Shown here: in pieces, positions 2 to 36,758 of the stretch
Position numbering within the stretch: position 1 is the first letter of the stretch
Layout: each line of letters starts with the position of its first letter
Source of the DNA: a virus
Lineage: Duplodnaviria > Caudoviricetes
DNA: 64,000 nt
Virus record (IMG/VR): IMGVR_UViG_3300021400_000131
Span: 12,648-76,647 of that record
Reading direction: 5' to 3' (one strand)
The notes under the pieces: model-generated
The model's database searches: none
Seen by the model: only the letters and a program-made list of their open reading frames with translations
Told to the model about the DNA's origin: nothing
Translations under genes and position numbers: made by a program

Positions 2-724
2 GACATCAATGAAGGTTATCTGCGTCCCATCTCCTTTGATATGGAACACGGGCTTTCTTTCGCACTTTTCGGACAGGTCAGCAATGCTTTCAATGTCTCT
101 TGCTACGGCGCTGATTCTCGTCGCTATGGCCTCAGCGACATACCTACTGTCCTTCTCAGGGTCGATGTATGTTCCTCGGCCATCCCCTATCCCAACACCA
201 CCAGCCTTTTGCACGGCCTTCCTTACGCCGTCCGTTATCTCGCTCTTCATTGACTTCGGGAAATCTTTGCCAAACTTGTGCACTATGTCAGGCACCGACA
301 CGGTTCCGTCTTTGCGCAGCTTGTCTCGCGCAGCGGCCTTGCAGTCATTCATCGCATCATGCATCGCTGCACGTTGACCTGGCACATATATCTTTTGCCT
401 GTAAATGTTGTCAATGGTTTGACCATCAGAGCACATGTCGATGTACTTCATGCGCTCATTGTCATCAATGCTTGCGAGCCATTCTGCCGCAAGCTTGCGG
501 TACTTACCCTTGATAAGCTCAGCGCTGCCGCAGACTTCATAAGCCCTGATGAGTGCATACGCCTCATACTTAGCAAACATAATCGACTTCTCATGAAACA
601 TGTCAGCAGCTCGCAGAGCCTCCTTGATGGTGTCAAGCTTGAAGAGCAACTTTCGTATGTCTTGCTCACTGGTAGCGCAATCAAGCTCATCCATAAAAGC
701 ATCGGCCTTTATGATTTCATTCAT
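2..724 (-). CDS. Hypothetical phage protein, truncated by the window edge
   Basis: Manual translation from ATG at 724 (RBS GAGGAGAGGAGG): MNEIIKADAFMDELDCATSEQ..., open to the window start; absent from the ORF track. Confidence 0.7.
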   Translation of the reverse strand, partial: MNEIIKADAFMDELDCATSEQDIRKLLFKLDTIKEALRAADMFHEKSIMFAKYEAYALIRAYEVCGSAELIKGKYRKLAAEWLASIDDNERMKYIDMCSDGQTIDNIYRQKIYVPGQRAAMHDAMNDCKAAARDKLRKDGTVSVPDIVHKFGKDFPKSMKSEITDGVRKAVQKAGGVGIGDGRGTYIDPEKDSRYVAEAIATRISAVARDIESIADLSEKCERKPVFHIKGDGTQITFIDV

Positions 725-2718
725 ACAGTCCTCCTCTCCTCAGCATCGAGCCTCCTTCCGCACATCGGACACACCTTCGGGTGGAACATCACCGTCGCTG
801 GAAGCGTGTACTTGCCTGCCCTGTCATCGTCAATCAGGACCAGCAACGACCACTCGTTGTCCTCGAAGTCGAACCAGAGGTTGACGCGGCCCTGCGAGTG
901 GTGAACGAGGTCATCGTCATTGGTGAACGCCCACTCACCCACAAGAACGCCGCCCTCAAGCTCGCCACCATTGCGGGCAACGGCAGCGTCTAGGTCACAG
1001 AACTCGCAGCTCACTCTTCGTCCTGCTTCCATGCGTACTCGACGCCAGTGACGGTGTAGGTGGGCTTGCTGTAACAGTTGCCGTCACCACTGTCCTCGAC
1101 GTGCTTCTTCTCGTGGATGATTGCCTTGATTGCGACGCAGCGCCCATAGCACTTCGGGCAAAGGTCAAGCTCACGCTTCTCGTAGCCAAACATGTGCGAC
1201 TCAGTGGTGTGCGTCTCGACCAAAACCTCGTGACGCCAGCGGTTCTCTCCATTGAAGTGCTCGCCAAAGTCTCGCTCCGCGCCGCACATGTCGCACTTGA
1301 CATGAATGATGTTCTGTTGCATCTCTACTCCCAAAGCTTGATTGACAGCGTTCCGTCATCGAGGTCGATGCCGTGCTCCTTGAGCTTCTCCAACTGCTCC
1401 TGCATCTGCTCGTGCTCGTCGATGATGCGTGCAAGCTCATGCACGTCACCATCCCAGAAGCACTCGCCTTCCAGCTTCAACTCCAAGTTTCCGTTGACTT
1501 GCAGGTAGGCGCTGACCGAGTGGATGTTGCCAGTCTTTTTCAGGTAGTTGCAACCGCTACTCTCAGCACGCTCATACACGTGGCCGTACATCCAGAGGTA
1601 GTCGCCATCTCCGTCCTCGACCTCGTGATCGTCAATCTTGGACGTGTCCCAGCGCGTGCGGTAGTACTTGCCCCACTCGTCTAGCGTCATGTCCCAGAAG
1701 GGCGACTCTCGGAACTCATCGAAGGTGTACTCCTTAGACCATTCGCAACCACTCCGAATGGAGCGCCATCCGTTCTCGTGAATCTCGGTTATGACATCAT
1801 CCTGAACGACAACGGTAACGGTGTCGGAATAGGTGCTAGGGATGACCCTAAGCATCCTTGCTGATACCTCGCCAACCTCCTTTCCACCCATGTTGCGGTA
1901 CTCGATATTGCCGTCTGACTTGCCGCAGGTGTCGTAGGCGAGCTTGAGGTCACGAACGTTCTTTGGGTCTGGCTTGGGCTTTGGCTTCGTGGTATTCGGA
2001 AACATCCCTAGTCACCGTCCCATACGCCATCGGGACGCATCCTCGCAAACGCGAGGAGCTGCATCAACGGTCGCTTTGCGTTGCCCTCGGTCGCATCCCA
2101 ATAGTCATCGCTCGTCTCGTCACCAAGGGCGGCAATGGCCTTCTCAAGTACGGGGATGGACTCTGCGCCGGACATGCCATAGATTGTGCGGATGCCATTC
2201 TCGCCCAGCACGTCATCGCGTCGATAGAACTTGCCGTAGTTGTAGGTGACGTTGAGCCAGCATTCCGTGGTACCGCCGACTGCATAGGTGCCGCCGCGCA
2301 TGAAGTGCGACTCATTAAGCTCTATCGGCGTGTTGTCAATGTGGTCGTTGAGGTAGATGTCGTAGCTCACTCGGCATCACGCTCCTCGCGCAGCTCGTCA
2401 AGCACCTCGCGCCACTTCTTCTTGCGACTACCACGCATCGCCATGAGCAGCGCGGCCTCGTCAACGACCTCCTGTGCGTGACGCTCCATCCACTTGTCCA
2501 TGTAGTCGCTGACGTACTTGTGCCAGTTGACCTTCGGCTTGCCATACTTGTCGTTGCCGTATGGGCCGTATCCGTAGTCTCGCGGCAGCGCCTCGGCGAT
2601 GCCCTGCCTGACCACGGAATCGACAACCTTGGCTACCTCGTCGCGCCCAAGCTCGGCGATCTGCCTTTCGATGGGCGACGTGTCGAAGCAGAACGGAATC
2701 GTTACGTCGTGAATCATG
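721..2718 (-). other. Run of five small hypothetical early genes (721-1014, 1011-1322, 1325-2005, 2008-2370, 2367-2718)
   Basis: Abutting or overlapping co-oriented ORFs with RBSs; CxxC motifs in the first two. Confidence 0.7.
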
Positions 2719-31796: not shown

Positions 31797-32423
31797 CTAC
31801 AGGAGGGAAAGCCCCTTGAGCCGTTCTGCAAGGGCGGACTTGCGCTCTTGCATCTCCTCGGCACGCCGCAGCACCTCCTGCTGCTTGCGCCTAGCCTCAA
31901 TCGCTCCGTCGAGGTAGGAACGTGCGCTTATCTCGGTGTTGGGGTTCGCAGGGATGCTCACCGCCGACACGTCGAATACCTTGCTGATTCTGGTGATGGT
32001 CGAGTGGATGGTCCCGTCCTCGTCCTCGTCCCAGTCGAAGCCGTCCTCGGCGATGACAAAGCCAAAGCTCATCTCGTCGATGAGGCCATTCTTGATGGAC
32101 TCGTAGAGGTCGCGTCCCTCGCGGCAACCGCCAAGGTACGCCTCGCACCACCCGCCGTGCTCGTCGATGCCGACGCTCAGCGAGTTGTTGCGCTGGCGTG
32201 CGAGTGGAGCGCCATCGTGGTTGAGCTGGAAGATCACGTCGCTCATGTTTGCCCCGTCGAGGGCGTGAGAGTCGACCGTCTCGTACCAGTCGGACATAAG
32301 CTCGTACTCCTGCCCGAACGTGGTGAAGTACCCCTTTACCTTGTAGGAGTCATCGCCGTCGACGGAGCGGAAGTTGTTGGCAGCGAAGGTACGGTACTGC
32401 CTGTCATTCGGAAGATATGGCAT
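31797..32423 (-). CDS. HK97-family prohead protease
   Basis: VKGYFTTF...QLNHD...MSFGF...DVSAVSIPANPNTEI. Confidence 0.92.
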   Translation of the reverse strand: MPYLPNDRQYRTFAANNFRSVDGDDSYKVKGYFTTFGQEYELMSDWYETVDSHALDGANMSDVIFQLNHDGAPLARQRNNSLSVGIDEHGGWCEAYLGGCREGRDLYESIKNGLIDEMSFGFVIAEDGFDWDEDEDGTIHSTITRISKVFDVSAVSIPANPNTEISARSYLDGAIEARRKQQEVLRRAEEMQERKSALAERLKGLSLL

Positions 32424-33717
32424 CGTCATCCTCCTCTGCGTCGTCAGATGAAGAAGGTCCGTCATCGTCTGACGGGCCTTCGTCTGTGTCTGTGTCTGTG
32501 TCTGTCTGCGAGCCGAGCGGGTGACCGCCGCTCGTCGCAACGATGTTGTTGTTCTCGTCGAGAAGGATGAACTCGCCGCGAAGGATGCGCATGTCCCCAC
32601 CGGGGATGTGCGGCATCTGTAGGATGTCGGCAGCTTGGTTGAACGACATCGCGGCGCGGTCCATCATCGACTCGATGACCTTGCGCTTGCTCTCCGGCGT
32701 GGCGTACTCAAGGTAGCTGGACGAGAACATGATGCGGTTGCCGTGGCGGCGCTGGATGGGAGTGATGAGCATCTTGGTAAGCTGCTCGCCCAGCATCAGC
32801 GCGAACGGCTCGATGCATCCCTCGTAGAACGCACCCCACTGCTCTTCCGTGTAGTCGTTCGTGAGGATGTGTTCGTTGATGCCGAAGTACGTGTAGAGCG
32901 CCTTGTCGATGCGGGCCATCTCGCCCTCGTCGATGGTGTAGCTCTGCTCCTTGATCTGCTGAATGGACTCCCACGTGTTGTCGTAGACCATCATGCCGCT
33001 GGTGTTGCGCGGCCCAAGGTTGGCCTCGCCGAACTTCTCGCGCTTCTTGTCCATCTGGTCCGGCTGCACCAGTCCGACCAGCTTGCCGATGAAGCGGATG
33101 CGTGCGCCGTTCTTCAGCGCCAGCTCCTCGGCCTGACGCTGCGCGTCCATGAGGCGGAGCGTCGATGTGAGCGGGATGTTCTTGCCGCCGAAGATGTCGC
33201 TGTAGAGCTGGAAGCGGGTGAGGATGCCGACTTGGTAGAAGCCGAACGCCTGAACCTCGCCGCTCGCAAGGTGGAACACGATGAACGGCTCACCCTCGTA
33301 CTCCACGACCTCGGCAGAAGTCGGCTTCAGAGGGTAGAGGCCAATCACCCGGTAGTCCCTGTCGAGCTGCGGAACGACGTATGCCGTGGTGTCCGTGTAC
33401 AGAATCGTCGCAAGGCGGCGAAGGAAGTCCGGCCACGTCATCTCGTCGTTGGGCCACGTCTCGAAGAGCCTCTGCACGCGCGGGTTGACGCTGGTTCCAC
33501 CCTCTGGCATCACGAACTCGGGCTTGAGCTTGGAGCACGACAAGGCGATGCGCTCGACGATGGCGCGTGTCTGCGCCTGCTCGTAGAGGGAGCCGTCGAA
33601 CGCGGAGAACGTCGGTGCCGTCTCCGTGAACGTCTGGAAGCCAGTTGTGGTGGTGAGGTTGGATTGCTGCGTCTGCCTGCGCCAAGAGGCGGGGACCAAT
33701 TTAGACAAGAATCCCAT
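32404..33717 (-). CDS. Portal protein (HK97 family)
   Basis: RAIVERIALSCSKL...WPNDEMTWPDF...; synteny terminase-portal-protease-capsid. Confidence 0.92.
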   Translation of the reverse strand: MGFLSKLVPASWRRQTQQSNLTTTTGFQTFTETAPTFSAFDGSLYEQAQTRAIVERIALSCSKLKPEFVMPEGGTSVNPRVQRLFETWPNDEMTWPDFLRRLATILYTDTTAYVVPQLDRDYRVIGLYPLKPTSAEVVEYEGEPFIVFHLASGEVQAFGFYQVGILTRFQLYSDIFGGKNIPLTSTLRLMDAQRQAEELALKNGARIRFIGKLVGLVQPDQMDKKREKFGEANLGPRNTSGMMVYDNTWESIQQIKEQSYTIDEGEMARIDKALYTYFGINEHILTNDYTEEQWGAFYEGCIEPFALMLGEQLTKMLITPIQRRHGNRIMFSSSYLEYATPESKRKVIESMMDRAAMSFNQAADILQMPHIPGGDMRILRGEFILLDENNNIVATSGGHPLGSQTDTDTDTDEGPSDDDGPSSSDDAEEDDDAISSE

Positions 33718-33753
33718 GACACACACTATATCTTGTATTAGCCGTAATGTCAA
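33718..33753 (-). promoter_or_regulatory. Near-consensus housekeeping-sigma promoter giving a leaderless portal mRNA
   Basis: TTGACA (33753-33748), 17 bp, TATAGT (33730-33725), 7 nt, ATG; no SD. Confidence 0.8.
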
Positions 33754-33779
33754 CCGTTAATTGGCACAATATATTGTGG
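33723..33779. promoter_or_regulatory. Tandem NrdR-box-like operators at the portal promoter
   Basis: acaCTATATCTTGtat (33723) and gcaCAATATATTGtgg (33764), 41 bp apart; match acaCwAtATaTwGtg. Confidence 0.7.
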
Positions 33780-33796
33780 TTATGCTAGAATGTAGG

Positions 33797-33985
33797 GAGT
33801 GAACCCCGGAAGCCTCTGGCTGACCTCCTCTCCCAGCCACGCGCAACTCTAGGGTGTTGTCGTGCCAGTGACGGCGCACAAGCTGGCACAGAGAGAAGCA
33901 GTGGGGCCTCAATCGCCTGTTGTGCCTACTCACCACTGCGCTAGAAGGGGACGGCGATCTCGGTTGCCGCCCCCTTTCTCTTCGC
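33797..33985 (+). ncRNA. Candidate sRNA between terL and portal
   Basis: Extended -10 TGcTAGAAT (33783-33791), three hairpins, GC terminator 33947-33974 followed by a U-rich tract. Confidence 0.55.
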
Positions 33986-34046
33986 TTCTTTCTTTTATAT
34001 TTTCTTTCTTCTCTTCTCTTTCCTCCCAGTTGCTACCCATACAGAC

Positions 34047-34105
34047 AGGAAAGAGAGTGAAATTCTAAGACCCATCCAAGTCTTAGAATTTCCTCTCTCT
34101 TTCCT
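34047..34105. terminator. Long inverted repeat downstream of terL
   Basis: AGGAAAGAGAG-T-GAAATTCTAAGAC / GTCTTAGAATTTC-CT-CTCTCTTTCCT, stem of about 24 bp. Confidence 0.65.
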
Positions 34106-34203
34106 ACTGTTAGGTATGTGCTGTGACTAGTACGTTGTACTTGCTTGTGAGAGGGCTGGTTTTCGACAGGGCGATGTTGAAACCTTGCGGCGCTGTTGAA
34201 AAG

Positions 34204-35934
34204 CTACCAGCCGATGGCCTGCATGTACTCCTCCTCGTTGCGCTTCAGGGCACCGTAGGCGCACAGCTCGGCCATGTAGCCATCGATGCGGTTCTGTGGG
34301 CGCAGCTCCTTCTTCTGTGGGAAGTAGTTGTCGTTGTTGTCCGCGCGGGCGTTGACGTTGGAGCGGCACCACTGAAGGACTGGGTTGTCATTGTCGATGA
34401 TGCGCTTGGCACGGAGGTCAAGGCGGTGCTCCTTCATGAGCGGGCTGATGACCTTGGCGTACTGCTCGACGGGGCGTGCCCTGCTCTCCCCCACGAGCCG
34501 CTGAAGCTCAAGCTCGGTGTGGTCATCGACGTGCCACTTGTCGTAGCCCACCGCGAACGGGTACACGCCCTCGTCCACAAGCTCGCGCAGCCACTCGATG
34601 ATGACCATCTGGTTGACCTTGTTGCCGGGGACGATGCGTATCAGCCCGTCAGCGGCCCACTGGTGGTACGGCACGCCGTCCCGCTCCTTGAAGGAGTTGC
34701 TGTTAATCTCAACCTGGTCCTCGGCAATCCAGAACATGGCTCGCTCGTAGATGTGGTCATCGTCTGGCTTCATGCACATCATGACGGCGGCATTGAGGTC
34801 GCCACGGTCAGCGAGGTCGAAGCCGACGATGCCGTAGCGGAACTGCGTGGCGTCGAACGTGTACGTCTCGCGGTTGACGCACTCCTCATAGGTGAGGAAC
34901 GATGCGTAGGAGTTGGACGGCAGGTTCATCTCCTTGGTCAGCAGCGACGGCATACGCGCCGGGGACTGCTGCGCCTTGCTCACGCGGTTGCGCAGGTAGT
35001 CCCACTCCTTCGTTATGCCCAATCCCGGTGAAGCCTTGGGCCACATGCGCTCGTCCCATACCTCGTCCCTGCTGTCCAACTCGTAGAGGAACGGGAGGAA
35101 GGTGTCATCCTCGATCTTGCCGTCAAGCCATCCGTAGGCGTACTTCTTGCGCTCGTCCCAGATGCCCTCGCGCACGTAGTTCTCGGTGCTGATGATGAAG
35201 AGCATCGGCGACTTGCGCGATGACATGGACTCGGTGAGCAGGTCGTAGGTTGCGCCGCCGTCCTCGCATGCGGCAAGCTCGTCAAGCACCGCGAAGCTCG
35301 TGTTGAGTCCGTCAAGCTTCTTGGAGTTGGAGCTGATGGTGCAGAGGTAGCTAAGCGTCTTGTCGTAGTTGAGGCCGGAGATTCCGCGCTTCTGCACCAT
35401 GCCGCGACGGATGCGCTTCTTGAGCTGCGGTGACATCTCGACCATGGAGTTTGTCGCGCCGTAGCACAGACGCGCCTGGCTCTCGGACGTCGCGCCGTTG
35501 TAGACCTCCGCACCTCCCTCGCCGTCGCTGGTGAGCATGTAGAGGTTGAGCGCGGCCAAGAGCGACGTCTTGCCCGACTTTCTCGCCCACTCTACCAGCA
35601 CTTCTCTGAACTGGCGTGCGTTGTCATCGTCCACGAAGCCGAAGGCCGTCTCGACAACGACGCGCTCGTAGGGAGCGAGCACGAACGGCTGGCCCATCTT
35701 CTTTGCGCTAGGGATGCGGCAGAACTTCTCGATGAAGCGCACGGGTCGCGTGGCGGCGTCGATGTCAAAGTGCCACTGCTTGTATCCATTGCTGAAGCGC
35801 GGCAGCATTATCTCAGCGAGCTTCTTTACATGGCGGCTCACGGTATAATTGCCGTCCATGCATCCAAGAAAGTACTGCTCAGCGTCGGAGCGTCCGTGCT
35901 CGTCAACGTAAACGAACGGCTCCCAGCTAGGCAT
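34204..35934 (-). CDS. terL: Terminase large subunit (cos/HK97-phi13 type)
   Basis: Walker A WARKSGKT, Walker B VLDE, nuclease GFDL...RIDG. Confidence 0.95.
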   Translation of the reverse strand: MPSWEPFVYVDEHGRSDAEQYFLGCMDGNYTVSRHVKKLAEIMLPRFSNGYKQWHFDIDAATRPVRFIEKFCRIPSAKKMGQPFVLAPYERVVVETAFGFVDDDNARQFREVLVEWARKSGKTSLLAALNLYMLTSDGEGGAEVYNGATSESQARLCYGATNSMVEMSPQLKKRIRRGMVQKRGISGLNYDKTLSYLCTISSNSKKLDGLNTSFAVLDELAACEDGGATYDLLTESMSSRKSPMLFIISTENYVREGIWDERKKYAYGWLDGKIEDDTFLPFLYELDSRDEVWDERMWPKASPGLGITKEWDYLRNRVSKAQQSPARMPSLLTKEMNLPSNSYASFLTYEECVNRETYTFDATQFRYGIVGFDLADRGDLNAAVMMCMKPDDDHIYERAMFWIAEDQVEINSNSFKERDGVPYHQWAADGLIRIVPGNKVNQMVIIEWLRELVDEGVYPFAVGYDKWHVDDHTELELQRLVGESRARPVEQYAKVISPLMKEHRLDLRAKRIIDNDNPVLQWCRSNVNARADNNDNYFPQKKELRPQNRIDGYMAELCAYGALKRNEEEYMQAIGW

Positions 35935-36277
35935 TGAAGGCATCGAACTCGTCCTCCTCCTCTGGTGCCGTGGCGTTCTTGGCGAACGATGACACCTTCT
36001 TGGCGAGGTCACCCAGTCGACCGATGGCCTTCTGGTAAGCCTTGAACTCGGCACGCTCGACGCGCTCGATGTGGCGGTTGTTGACGGTGCCGACCTCCTT
36101 CTCCTCCATGACGCCCTTCTCCTGTATTACGAGACGCAGCGCCTCGGTCATGGATGCGAGCGCGTCATACTCAGTGAGGAGATCGTCTAGCAGCGCCTTG
36201 TCAAAGCCCGTGAGTCCGTCCGACTCTCGGTGCAGGCGGTCAAGGCGCGGCGTGTCGTACTTCTTCTTTGTTGCCAT
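35927..36277 (-). CDS. terS: Terminase small subunit
   Basis: Overlaps the terL start; helical P27-like, ends EEDEFDAF. Confidence 0.8.
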   Translation of the reverse strand: MATKKKYDTPRLDRLHRESDGLTGFDKALLDDLLTEYDALASMTEALRLVIQEKGVMEEKEVGTVNNRHIERVERAEFKAYQKAIGRLGDLAKKVSSFAKNATAPEEEDEFDAFNA

Positions 36278-36711: not shown

Positions 36712-36758
36712 GCACTATATCTTGTGGTTTTCTCAAGTTTGCAAACTATATATTGTGG
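36712..36758. promoter_or_regulatory. Tandem NrdR-box-like operators upstream of HNH-terS-terL
   Basis: gcaCTATATCTTGtgg (36712) and aaaCTATATATTGtgg (36743), 31 bp apart; each contains a TATAGT -10 candidate on the minus strand. Confidence 0.75.

Follow-up and report, generated by a model that had tools for sequence, protein, structure and literature searches.

The window analysed here, a stretch of 64,000 nucleotides, covers positions 12648-76647 of an IMG/VR virus record that is complete at 76.6 kb and bears terminal repeats, and derives from an uncultured rumen phage. The TerL and portal genes of this phage flank a gap of 486 nt (33718-34203), to which independent gene calls of the same contig assign no gene, and which contains the candidate RNA described below (Table 1). 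Three small ORFs in this gap, one of 68 aa on the plus strand and two of 36 and 59 aa on the minus strand, were considered and rejected as genes because they are not preceded by a Shine-Dalgarno (SD) sequence, and also because they cross the terminator or the purine tract, where the indels of relatives are not multiples of three. The plus strand of the gap is pyrimidine-rich overall.

Table 1. Features of the TerL-portal gap, its flanking genes, and the early genes with GAGAGGA at the SD position. Coordinates are those of the window.
Feature	Position	Strand	Basis or remarks
TerL gene	34204-35943	-	Pfam
Portal gene	32404-33717	-	Pfam Phage_portal
Portal promoter, TTGACA-17-TATAGT	33715-33753, including ATG 33717-33715	-	11 of 12 consensus matches; kept in relatives
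NrdR-like box 1	33723-33738		Overlaps portal -10; 2 mismatches to ACACWATATATWGTGT; kept in relatives
NrdR-like box 2	33764-33779		Inside spacer of plus-strand promoter; kept in relatives
Extended -10 of candidate sRNA promoter, TGcTAGAAT	33783-33791	+	Sequence; predicted start near 33798
Predicted non-coding RNA, ~180 nt	33798-33980	+	No called gene; no Rfam or tRNA match; fold
Conserved 5' element	33803-33855	+	Alignment of four versions; pair count
5' element, outer stem	33803-33808 / 33850-33855	+	
5' element, two G-C pairs	33812-33813 / 33841-33842	+	
5' element, apical stem (hairpin 1)	33817-33822 / 33834-33839	+	GGCUG 33818-33822; loop ACCUCCUCUCC 33823-33833; CAGCC 33834-33838
Two further hairpins	33862-33939 (33862-33889 and 33899-33939)	+	GUGCCAG/CUGGCAC 33862-33868/33883-33889; GCAGUGG/CCACUGC 33899-33905/33933-33939; not conserved in relatives
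Intrinsic terminator	33944-33985	+	GC-rich hairpin 33944-33977 (-21.7 kcal/mol), then U-rich run UUUCUCUU
Homopyrimidine mirror repeat	33973-34023		51 nt, 25-nt arms, 1 mismatch; score reached by 0 of 200 shuffles
23-bp hairpin 3' of terL	34049-34105		Compensatory changes at 8 upper-stem pairs (7 sequences compared)
Early genes with GAGAGGA at the SD position	38232, 42723, 43407, 44293, 44758, 47803, 48966, 49316, 50293, 54532, 54807		

The best cellular match to the portal protein, with 55% identity, is found in a prophage within an Atopobiaceae MAG from sheep ileum, and the viral relatives of this protein come mostly from the same few metagenome sample sets. Judging from these two observations, the phage probably infects one of the Atopobiaceae (Coriobacteriia). 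The 3' end of the 16S rRNA reads GGATCACCTCCTTTCTA in two Atopobiaceae genomes. The relatives used for comparison (L numbers) were collected through the portal protein, and those contigs that bear the conserved 5' element carry structural genes only. A further relative, ~92% identical over 33799-34242, was found as contigs in a bovine-gut run that is probably DNA. Three metatranscriptome runs linked to the source sample yielded no matching contig, and none of the data sets listed as carrying the region is recorded as RNA.

Comparison of these relatives shows that sequence is swapped at the TerL-portal junction. The gap is merely 36-130 nt long in many of them, whereas it reaches 1.4 kb in L012. 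The corresponding region of L010 holds an ORF that by eye resembles an HTH-type gene, and that of L058 a 900-nt insert with tandem repeats, a GIY-YIG gene following the portal gene in the latter. The TerL protein of L051, with 957 aa, bears a LAGLIDADG-type insert.

The preliminary description had proposed an extended -10 pointing away from the portal gene, with the second of two NrdR-like boxes in its spacer. Both features are present, the box lying between a TTGGCA hexamer (33761-33766) and the extended -10. The spacer between these two promoter elements measures 19 bp, which is why a consensus promoter scan did not include the candidate sRNA promoter among its listed promoters. On the opposite strand, the portal promoter has its -10 placed 7 nt ahead of the portal ATG, a layout that is the same in relatives and from which the portal gene appears to be leaderless. 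The two promoters are back to back, with 7 bp separating their -35 elements.

Matches to the NrdR-box pattern number five in the window, against 0.15 expected, two of the five being overlapping registers of the first site. They form two site pairs, namely, 33723-33779, with sites 41 bp apart, and 36712-36758, with sites 31 bp apart; the latter overlaps the promoter of the HNH-terS-terL operon, and the former, which six relatives have kept, overlaps that of the portal-head operon. The TGnTAnnnT motif is likewise kept in place in six relatives (L003/L004/L053, L018, L051/L052, L054 and L057), which retain the entire order of portal ATG, box 1, TTGACA, box 2 and TGnTAnnnT and differ in sequence downstream of the promoter. 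L055, L056 and L059 lack the RNA body and, together with it, both the extended -10 and the NrdR-like boxes.

Downstream of the plus-strand promoter, the three hairpins and the GC-rich terminator with its U tract, as originally proposed, were all recovered (Table 1). The apical loop of hairpin 1 consists of pyrimidines only, except for its leading A, shares ACCUCCU with the 16S rRNA 3' tail of the host family, and has a mean unpaired probability of 0.79. No known RNA was found by Rfam cmscan, either in the whole window at the gathering score or in 33500-34400 at E <= 10, ARAGORN found no tRNA, and blastn against the GenBank phage collection gave no match. Compared with shuffled sequences, the whole RNA does not stand out in stability (z = -1.4 on the plus strand and z = -0.6 on the minus strand), and the 5' element of the window alone is no more stable than its shuffles (z = -0.14).

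To evaluate the conservation of the 5' element, four versions of it (window, L018, L051/L052 and L054), of which only three are independent, were aligned over 58 nt. In the three-helix structure 98.2% of cells are paired, as compared with 36-59% after shifting the 3' partners by 1-3 columns. Compensatory changes are seen at three pairs, namely, A-U/G-C, C-G/A-U/G-U and G-C/U-G, although three independent versions make for sparse covariation statistics. The 5' elements of the window and L018 are ~95% identical, the apical hairpin and loop being the best-conserved part between the two, whereas the portal proteins are 51% identical and the adjacent promoter region ~75%; this difference argues for selection acting on the 5' element rather than for recent transfer.

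The loop occurs as ACCUCCUCUCC, ACUCCUCUCC or, in L054, CCUCCCUCU. Each substitution among these versions is an exchange of C for U or vice versa (four out of four between the window and L054), and the predicted unpaired probability of the loop ranges from 0.71 to 0.90. In L057 the promoter and the outer stem are kept, and the CU loop is replaced by a 34-nt insert. The 7-mer UCCUCUC of the preliminary description is thus altered in L054 and lost in L057. The stretch with hairpins 2 and 3 is replaced or missing in L051, L054 and L057, and these three relatives, as well as L026, each have their own distinct GC hairpin and U run at the place of the terminator, so that the predicted RNAs of the different versions measure 102-186 nt. 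Two unrelated RNA bodies, those of L003/L053 and L026, follow an equivalent promoter in the same slot and likewise leave pyrimidine runs of 12-13 nt exposed.

Few copies of the element exist in the public collections searched. A covariance model of the 5' element, R1, matches only the known copies and the L057 scaffold, and found no copy in the 151 Atopobiaceae genomes searched or in four related phage records. Scans with exact and degenerate hairpin patterns of IMG/VR, JGI metagenomes and GTDB genomes retrieved the L018 contig only, besides two matches in unrelated high-GC genomes that were taken as chance.

Two other elements share the gap with the candidate RNA. First, the homopyrimidine mirror repeat, whose left arm is the U tract of the terminator, is 94% C/T and has TATAT at its centre. 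Its mirror symmetry is kept, with differing arms, in six relatives (L003, L051, L055, L056, L059 and L026), and homopyrimidine mirror repeats are the classic sequence requirement for H-DNA, that is, intramolecular triplexes. Second, the 23-bp hairpin 3' of terL has an invariant lower stem, GGAAAGAGAG-U-GAAA / UUUCC-UCUCUCUUUCC, and no U tract on either side; a pattern scan for its arm gave, beyond the known relatives, four unrelated matches that were taken as chance. Since both the mirror repeat and the 23-bp hairpin persist in relatives that have neither the RNA nor the NrdR-like boxes, they are separate elements.

The recurrence among relatives of the promoter, of a 5' stem-loop with compensatory changes, of a pyrimidine-only loop and of a terminator indicates that a non-coding RNA gene of ~180 nt on the plus strand is probably real. 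That a plus-strand RNA is in fact made from the TerL-portal gap we hold to be fairly likely on these comparative grounds. What such an RNA would do is a different matter, for which several explanations have to be weighed.

A first alternative is that the RNA acts in cis, either as an antisense or insulator opposite the 3' region of terL and the terL-portal read-through, or through promoter interference or balance with the portal promoter, the CU loop being incidental in a strand rich in pyrimidines. Any plus-strand RNA made here would be fully complementary to late read-through RNA, and the -35 elements of the back-to-back promoters are 7 bp apart; furthermore, the RNA body is freely swapped among relatives while promoter and terminator persist, and L057 dispenses with the CU loop altogether. 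Against this, the apical hairpin and loop form the best-conserved stretch relative to L018, the substitutions in the loop stay within the pyrimidines, and a CU run is exposed by all three unrelated RNA bodies of the slot. We therefore regard a purely cis-acting role as possible, though rather unlikely.

The function could also reside on the minus strand, where the stem-loop displays GGAGAGGAGGU, a strong SD-like sequence without a start codon, within the terL-portal read-through mRNA, and could serve, ahead of the leaderless portal gene, as a ribosome-docking, stabilising (STAB-SD-like) or processing element. The structure folds equally well on that strand, and the alignment contains one mismatch on the plus strand and two on the minus strand (the difference being G-U versus A-C pairs), counts that leave the strand undecided; the adjoining purine tract is in addition rich in SD-like words. 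A conventional SD is rejected for GGAGAGGAGGT on the minus strand, as no start codon comes after it. Against a minus-strand role, the portal promoter has the element on its upstream side, so that the main portal transcript would not contain it, and it is missing in relatives that still need to express terL and portal. Moreover, the plus strand is indicated by the GC hairpin with its U run, by the conservation of the extended -10 and by the placement of the stem at +5 to +14 relative to this promoter element, which makes the minus-strand alternative unlikely.

An equally doubtful explanation is that the locus has no dedicated function, and that what we see is a promoter- and hairpin-like remnant of mosaic recombination at the terL-portal swap site. 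The variability of the slot (the HTH-like ORF of L010, the insert of L058, the short gaps of many relatives), the weak fold z-scores and the handful of copies in the public collections searched are consistent with such a remnant. Against a remnant speak the compensatory changes, the pyrimidine-only loop, and a promoter and terminator that have been kept among phages whose portal proteins are 51-89% identical to that of the window.

The function originally suggested for the RNA was more specific, namely, that of a multi-target sRNA that is made when late genes switch on, and whose UCCUCUC loop silences the early and host-takeover genes with GAGAGGA at their RBS. The sequence features on which this proposal was built were all confirmed. 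The window contains 20 copies of GAGAGGA, where 9.9 +/- 3.3 would be expected, and none of 100 shuffles reached 20. All 11 sites listed previously lie 5-9 nt upstream of independently called early-gene starts, which amounts to 11 of 54 early genes with GAGAGGA at the SD position as compared with none of 31 late genes (Fisher p = 0.006). Likewise, the 10-nt loop match reported before the ORF at 724 exists, as GGAGAGGAGG located 5 nt before the ATG at 724. It is the longest perfect complement to the sRNA loop noted in the window. The ORFs ending at 721 and starting at 724, which overlap as ATGA (721-738, minus strand), gave no significant Pfam match.

The enrichment of GAGAGGA has to be read against the SD usage of the host family, in which this is an ordinary form. 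In two Atopobiaceae genomes (G008 and G012), GAGAGGA-N4-10-ATG occurs at 94 and 129 sites, much like GAAAGGA, which occurs at 96 and 87. GAAAGGA is fully complementary to the 16S tail, while GAGAGGA pairs with it through one G-U wobble. At the GAGAGGA sites of the early genes, the advantage of the loop over the 16S tail amounts to 1-4 kcal/mol. Per gene, GAGAGGA is about four times as frequent in the early block of the phage as we estimate for the host, a figure that relies on an assumed, rather than counted, host gene number. In related phages without a copy of the element, GAGAGGA RBSs are also present, 16 of them in G003 and 6 in G002.

The duplexes between loop and RBS average -10.7 kcal/mol for early genes (n = 54), -9.0 kcal/mol for late genes (n = 31) and -4.6 kcal/mol inside genes; early and late genes do not differ significantly (p = 0.09), and nothing is left of the difference once the pairing with the 16S tail has been subtracted (p = 0.67). 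The strongest predictions fall, among others, on TerL, the protease (at 32423) and terS. When the full RNA was tested with unrestricted duplexfold against all translation start regions it performed no better than shuffled sequences (-40.5 versus -39.7 +/- 1.4), and no extended complement of the RNA was found among these regions. Since the loop resembles the 16S tail (ACCUCCU), practically all SDs of the phage pair with it; and because any CU run pairs with any SD, such pairing is no evidence of targeting.

Thus, despite the skew of GAGAGGA towards early genes, its favourable pairing with the loop and NrdR-like boxes through which the RNA would be controlled along with the head genes, a dedicated shut-off of early genes is very improbable and an early-gene regulon is not supported, because early and late RBSs do not differ in pairing once SD strength is accounted for, GAGAGGA is a common host SD that element-free phages carry as well, the loop 7-mer is changed or gone in L054 and L057, and 43 of the 54 early genes do not have the motif.

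What remains of the original sRNA proposal is a divergent, terminated, non-coding unit with an exposed anti-SD-like loop, which best fits the relatives; it is the early-gene regulon that falls away. We consider that the best explanation of this unit is a generic anti-SD base-pairing riboregulator, chaperone-independent and self-contained on the plus strand, to which we would give a probability of about 0.38. According to this explanation, the extended -10 promoter would fire away from the leaderless portal promoter, on the strand opposite to the late genes, and, since the NrdR-like boxes cover both divergent promoters, these two operator-like sites would switch the RNA together with the head genes. 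The resulting RNA of ~180 nt would present its 5' stem-loop with the CU apical loop, and would end at the GC hairpin and U run. The exposed loop would then pair with purine-rich SD regions, best with those of the GGAGAG/GAGAGG type, albeit with a mild preference, and in doing so it would compete with the 30S subunit, as 6C, RsaE/RoxS and cuckoo sRNAs act. As a general anti-SD, the loop would have targets that are not limited to early genes, and among which there may be late mRNAs of the phage and about one hundred mRNAs of the host.

It is tempting to speculate beyond the generic riboregulator. The host boxes could sense the dNTP pool, so that an NrdR-switched mimic of the 16S tail would out-compete ribosomes at GAGAGG SDs and reprogram late translation, the slot itself being a swappable cassette for anti-SD RNAs. 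If this were true, the late switch would reprogram the translation of a fifth of the phage's early genes and of some one hundred genes of the host, and different phages would carry different anti-SD RNAs in the TerL-portal slot. We find this extension improbable, somewhat more so than the minus-strand and remnant explanations discussed above.

If the RNA is real, it would represent a compact case, that is, an RNA of ~180 nt with a defined 11-nt seed, co-regulated with head genes via sites resembling NrdR operators, in a slot that in related phages also houses other RNAs exposing CU runs. Very few trans-acting sRNAs have been described from phages, and to our knowledge none from those of Coriobacteriia. 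The negative result is also of general relevance: that a CU loop is complementary to SD sequences does not constitute evidence of a regulon, as the same motif is an ordinary SD of the host.

How, then, does the candidate compare with known RNAs? Of the features of trans-acting anti-SD sRNAs, sequence and comparison indicate an independent promoter and terminator and a predicted non-coding transcription unit, as well as a conserved structure exposing a C/U-rich loop, with L057 as the exception; a target set distinct from all SD-bearing mRNAs is not seen. Among phage RNAs, c4 of P1/P7 and sar of P22 are antisense immunity RNAs that mask an RBS, each with one dedicated and extensively complementary target. 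The RNA described here is alike in being a small phage-encoded RNA that would act on RBSs, and unlike c4 and sar in that its loop is a generic anti-SD sequence of 7-11 nt and in that it has no Rfam match.

Three bacterial families offer closer parallels. First, the 6C sRNA (6C/B11 of M. tuberculosis) binds the G-rich RBSs of many mRNAs through C-rich loops without a chaperone (PMC6486639). With 6C (Rfam RF01066) our candidate shares the host phylum, Actinomycetota, a C-rich hairpin loop facing purine- or G-rich RBSs, and a short terminated transcript. In contrast, 6C has two loops that each contain a run of at least six C, whereas the phage RNA has one mixed CU loop, ACCUCCUCUCC, with a longest C run of 3, and no C-rich loop in its second and third hairpins; in addition, the RNA is phage-encoded and was not found in the 151 Atopobiaceae genomes, and RF01066 gave no cmscan match in the window at the gathering score or in 33500-34400 at E <= 10. 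Second, the cuckoo or alpha-r14 sRNAs of Alphaproteobacteria consist of 2-4 adjacent hairpins, each with a CCUCCUCCC loop on variable stems (PMC4615179). The resemblance lies in the anti-SD-like loop motif, CCUCCUCUCC in the window, and in stems that change in a compensatory manner while the character of the loop is kept. Unlike cuckoo RNAs (RF02344 and related), the phage-borne RNA belongs to another phylum, carries the motif, with one extra U, in its first hairpin only, and has no Rfam match. Third, RsaE blocks formation of the initiation complex through an unpaired UCCC motif at the SD (PMC2790875). RsaE/RoxS RNAs of Bacillota are similar in directing an unpaired C-rich motif at the SD region and in their Hfq-independent action; they differ in having UCCC repeats rather than the CUCUCC/CCUCC found here, where a single UCCC lies towards the 3' end of the loop, and in host and genomic setting, without homology or an Rfam match to RF01820.

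Because covariance-model matches and the defining multi-loop architecture are both absent, membership of the 6C, cuckoo and RsaE families fails. On our best reading of the sequence comparisons, the candidate is therefore to be filed outside these families, as a new phage-borne anti-SD sRNA with a C/U loop.
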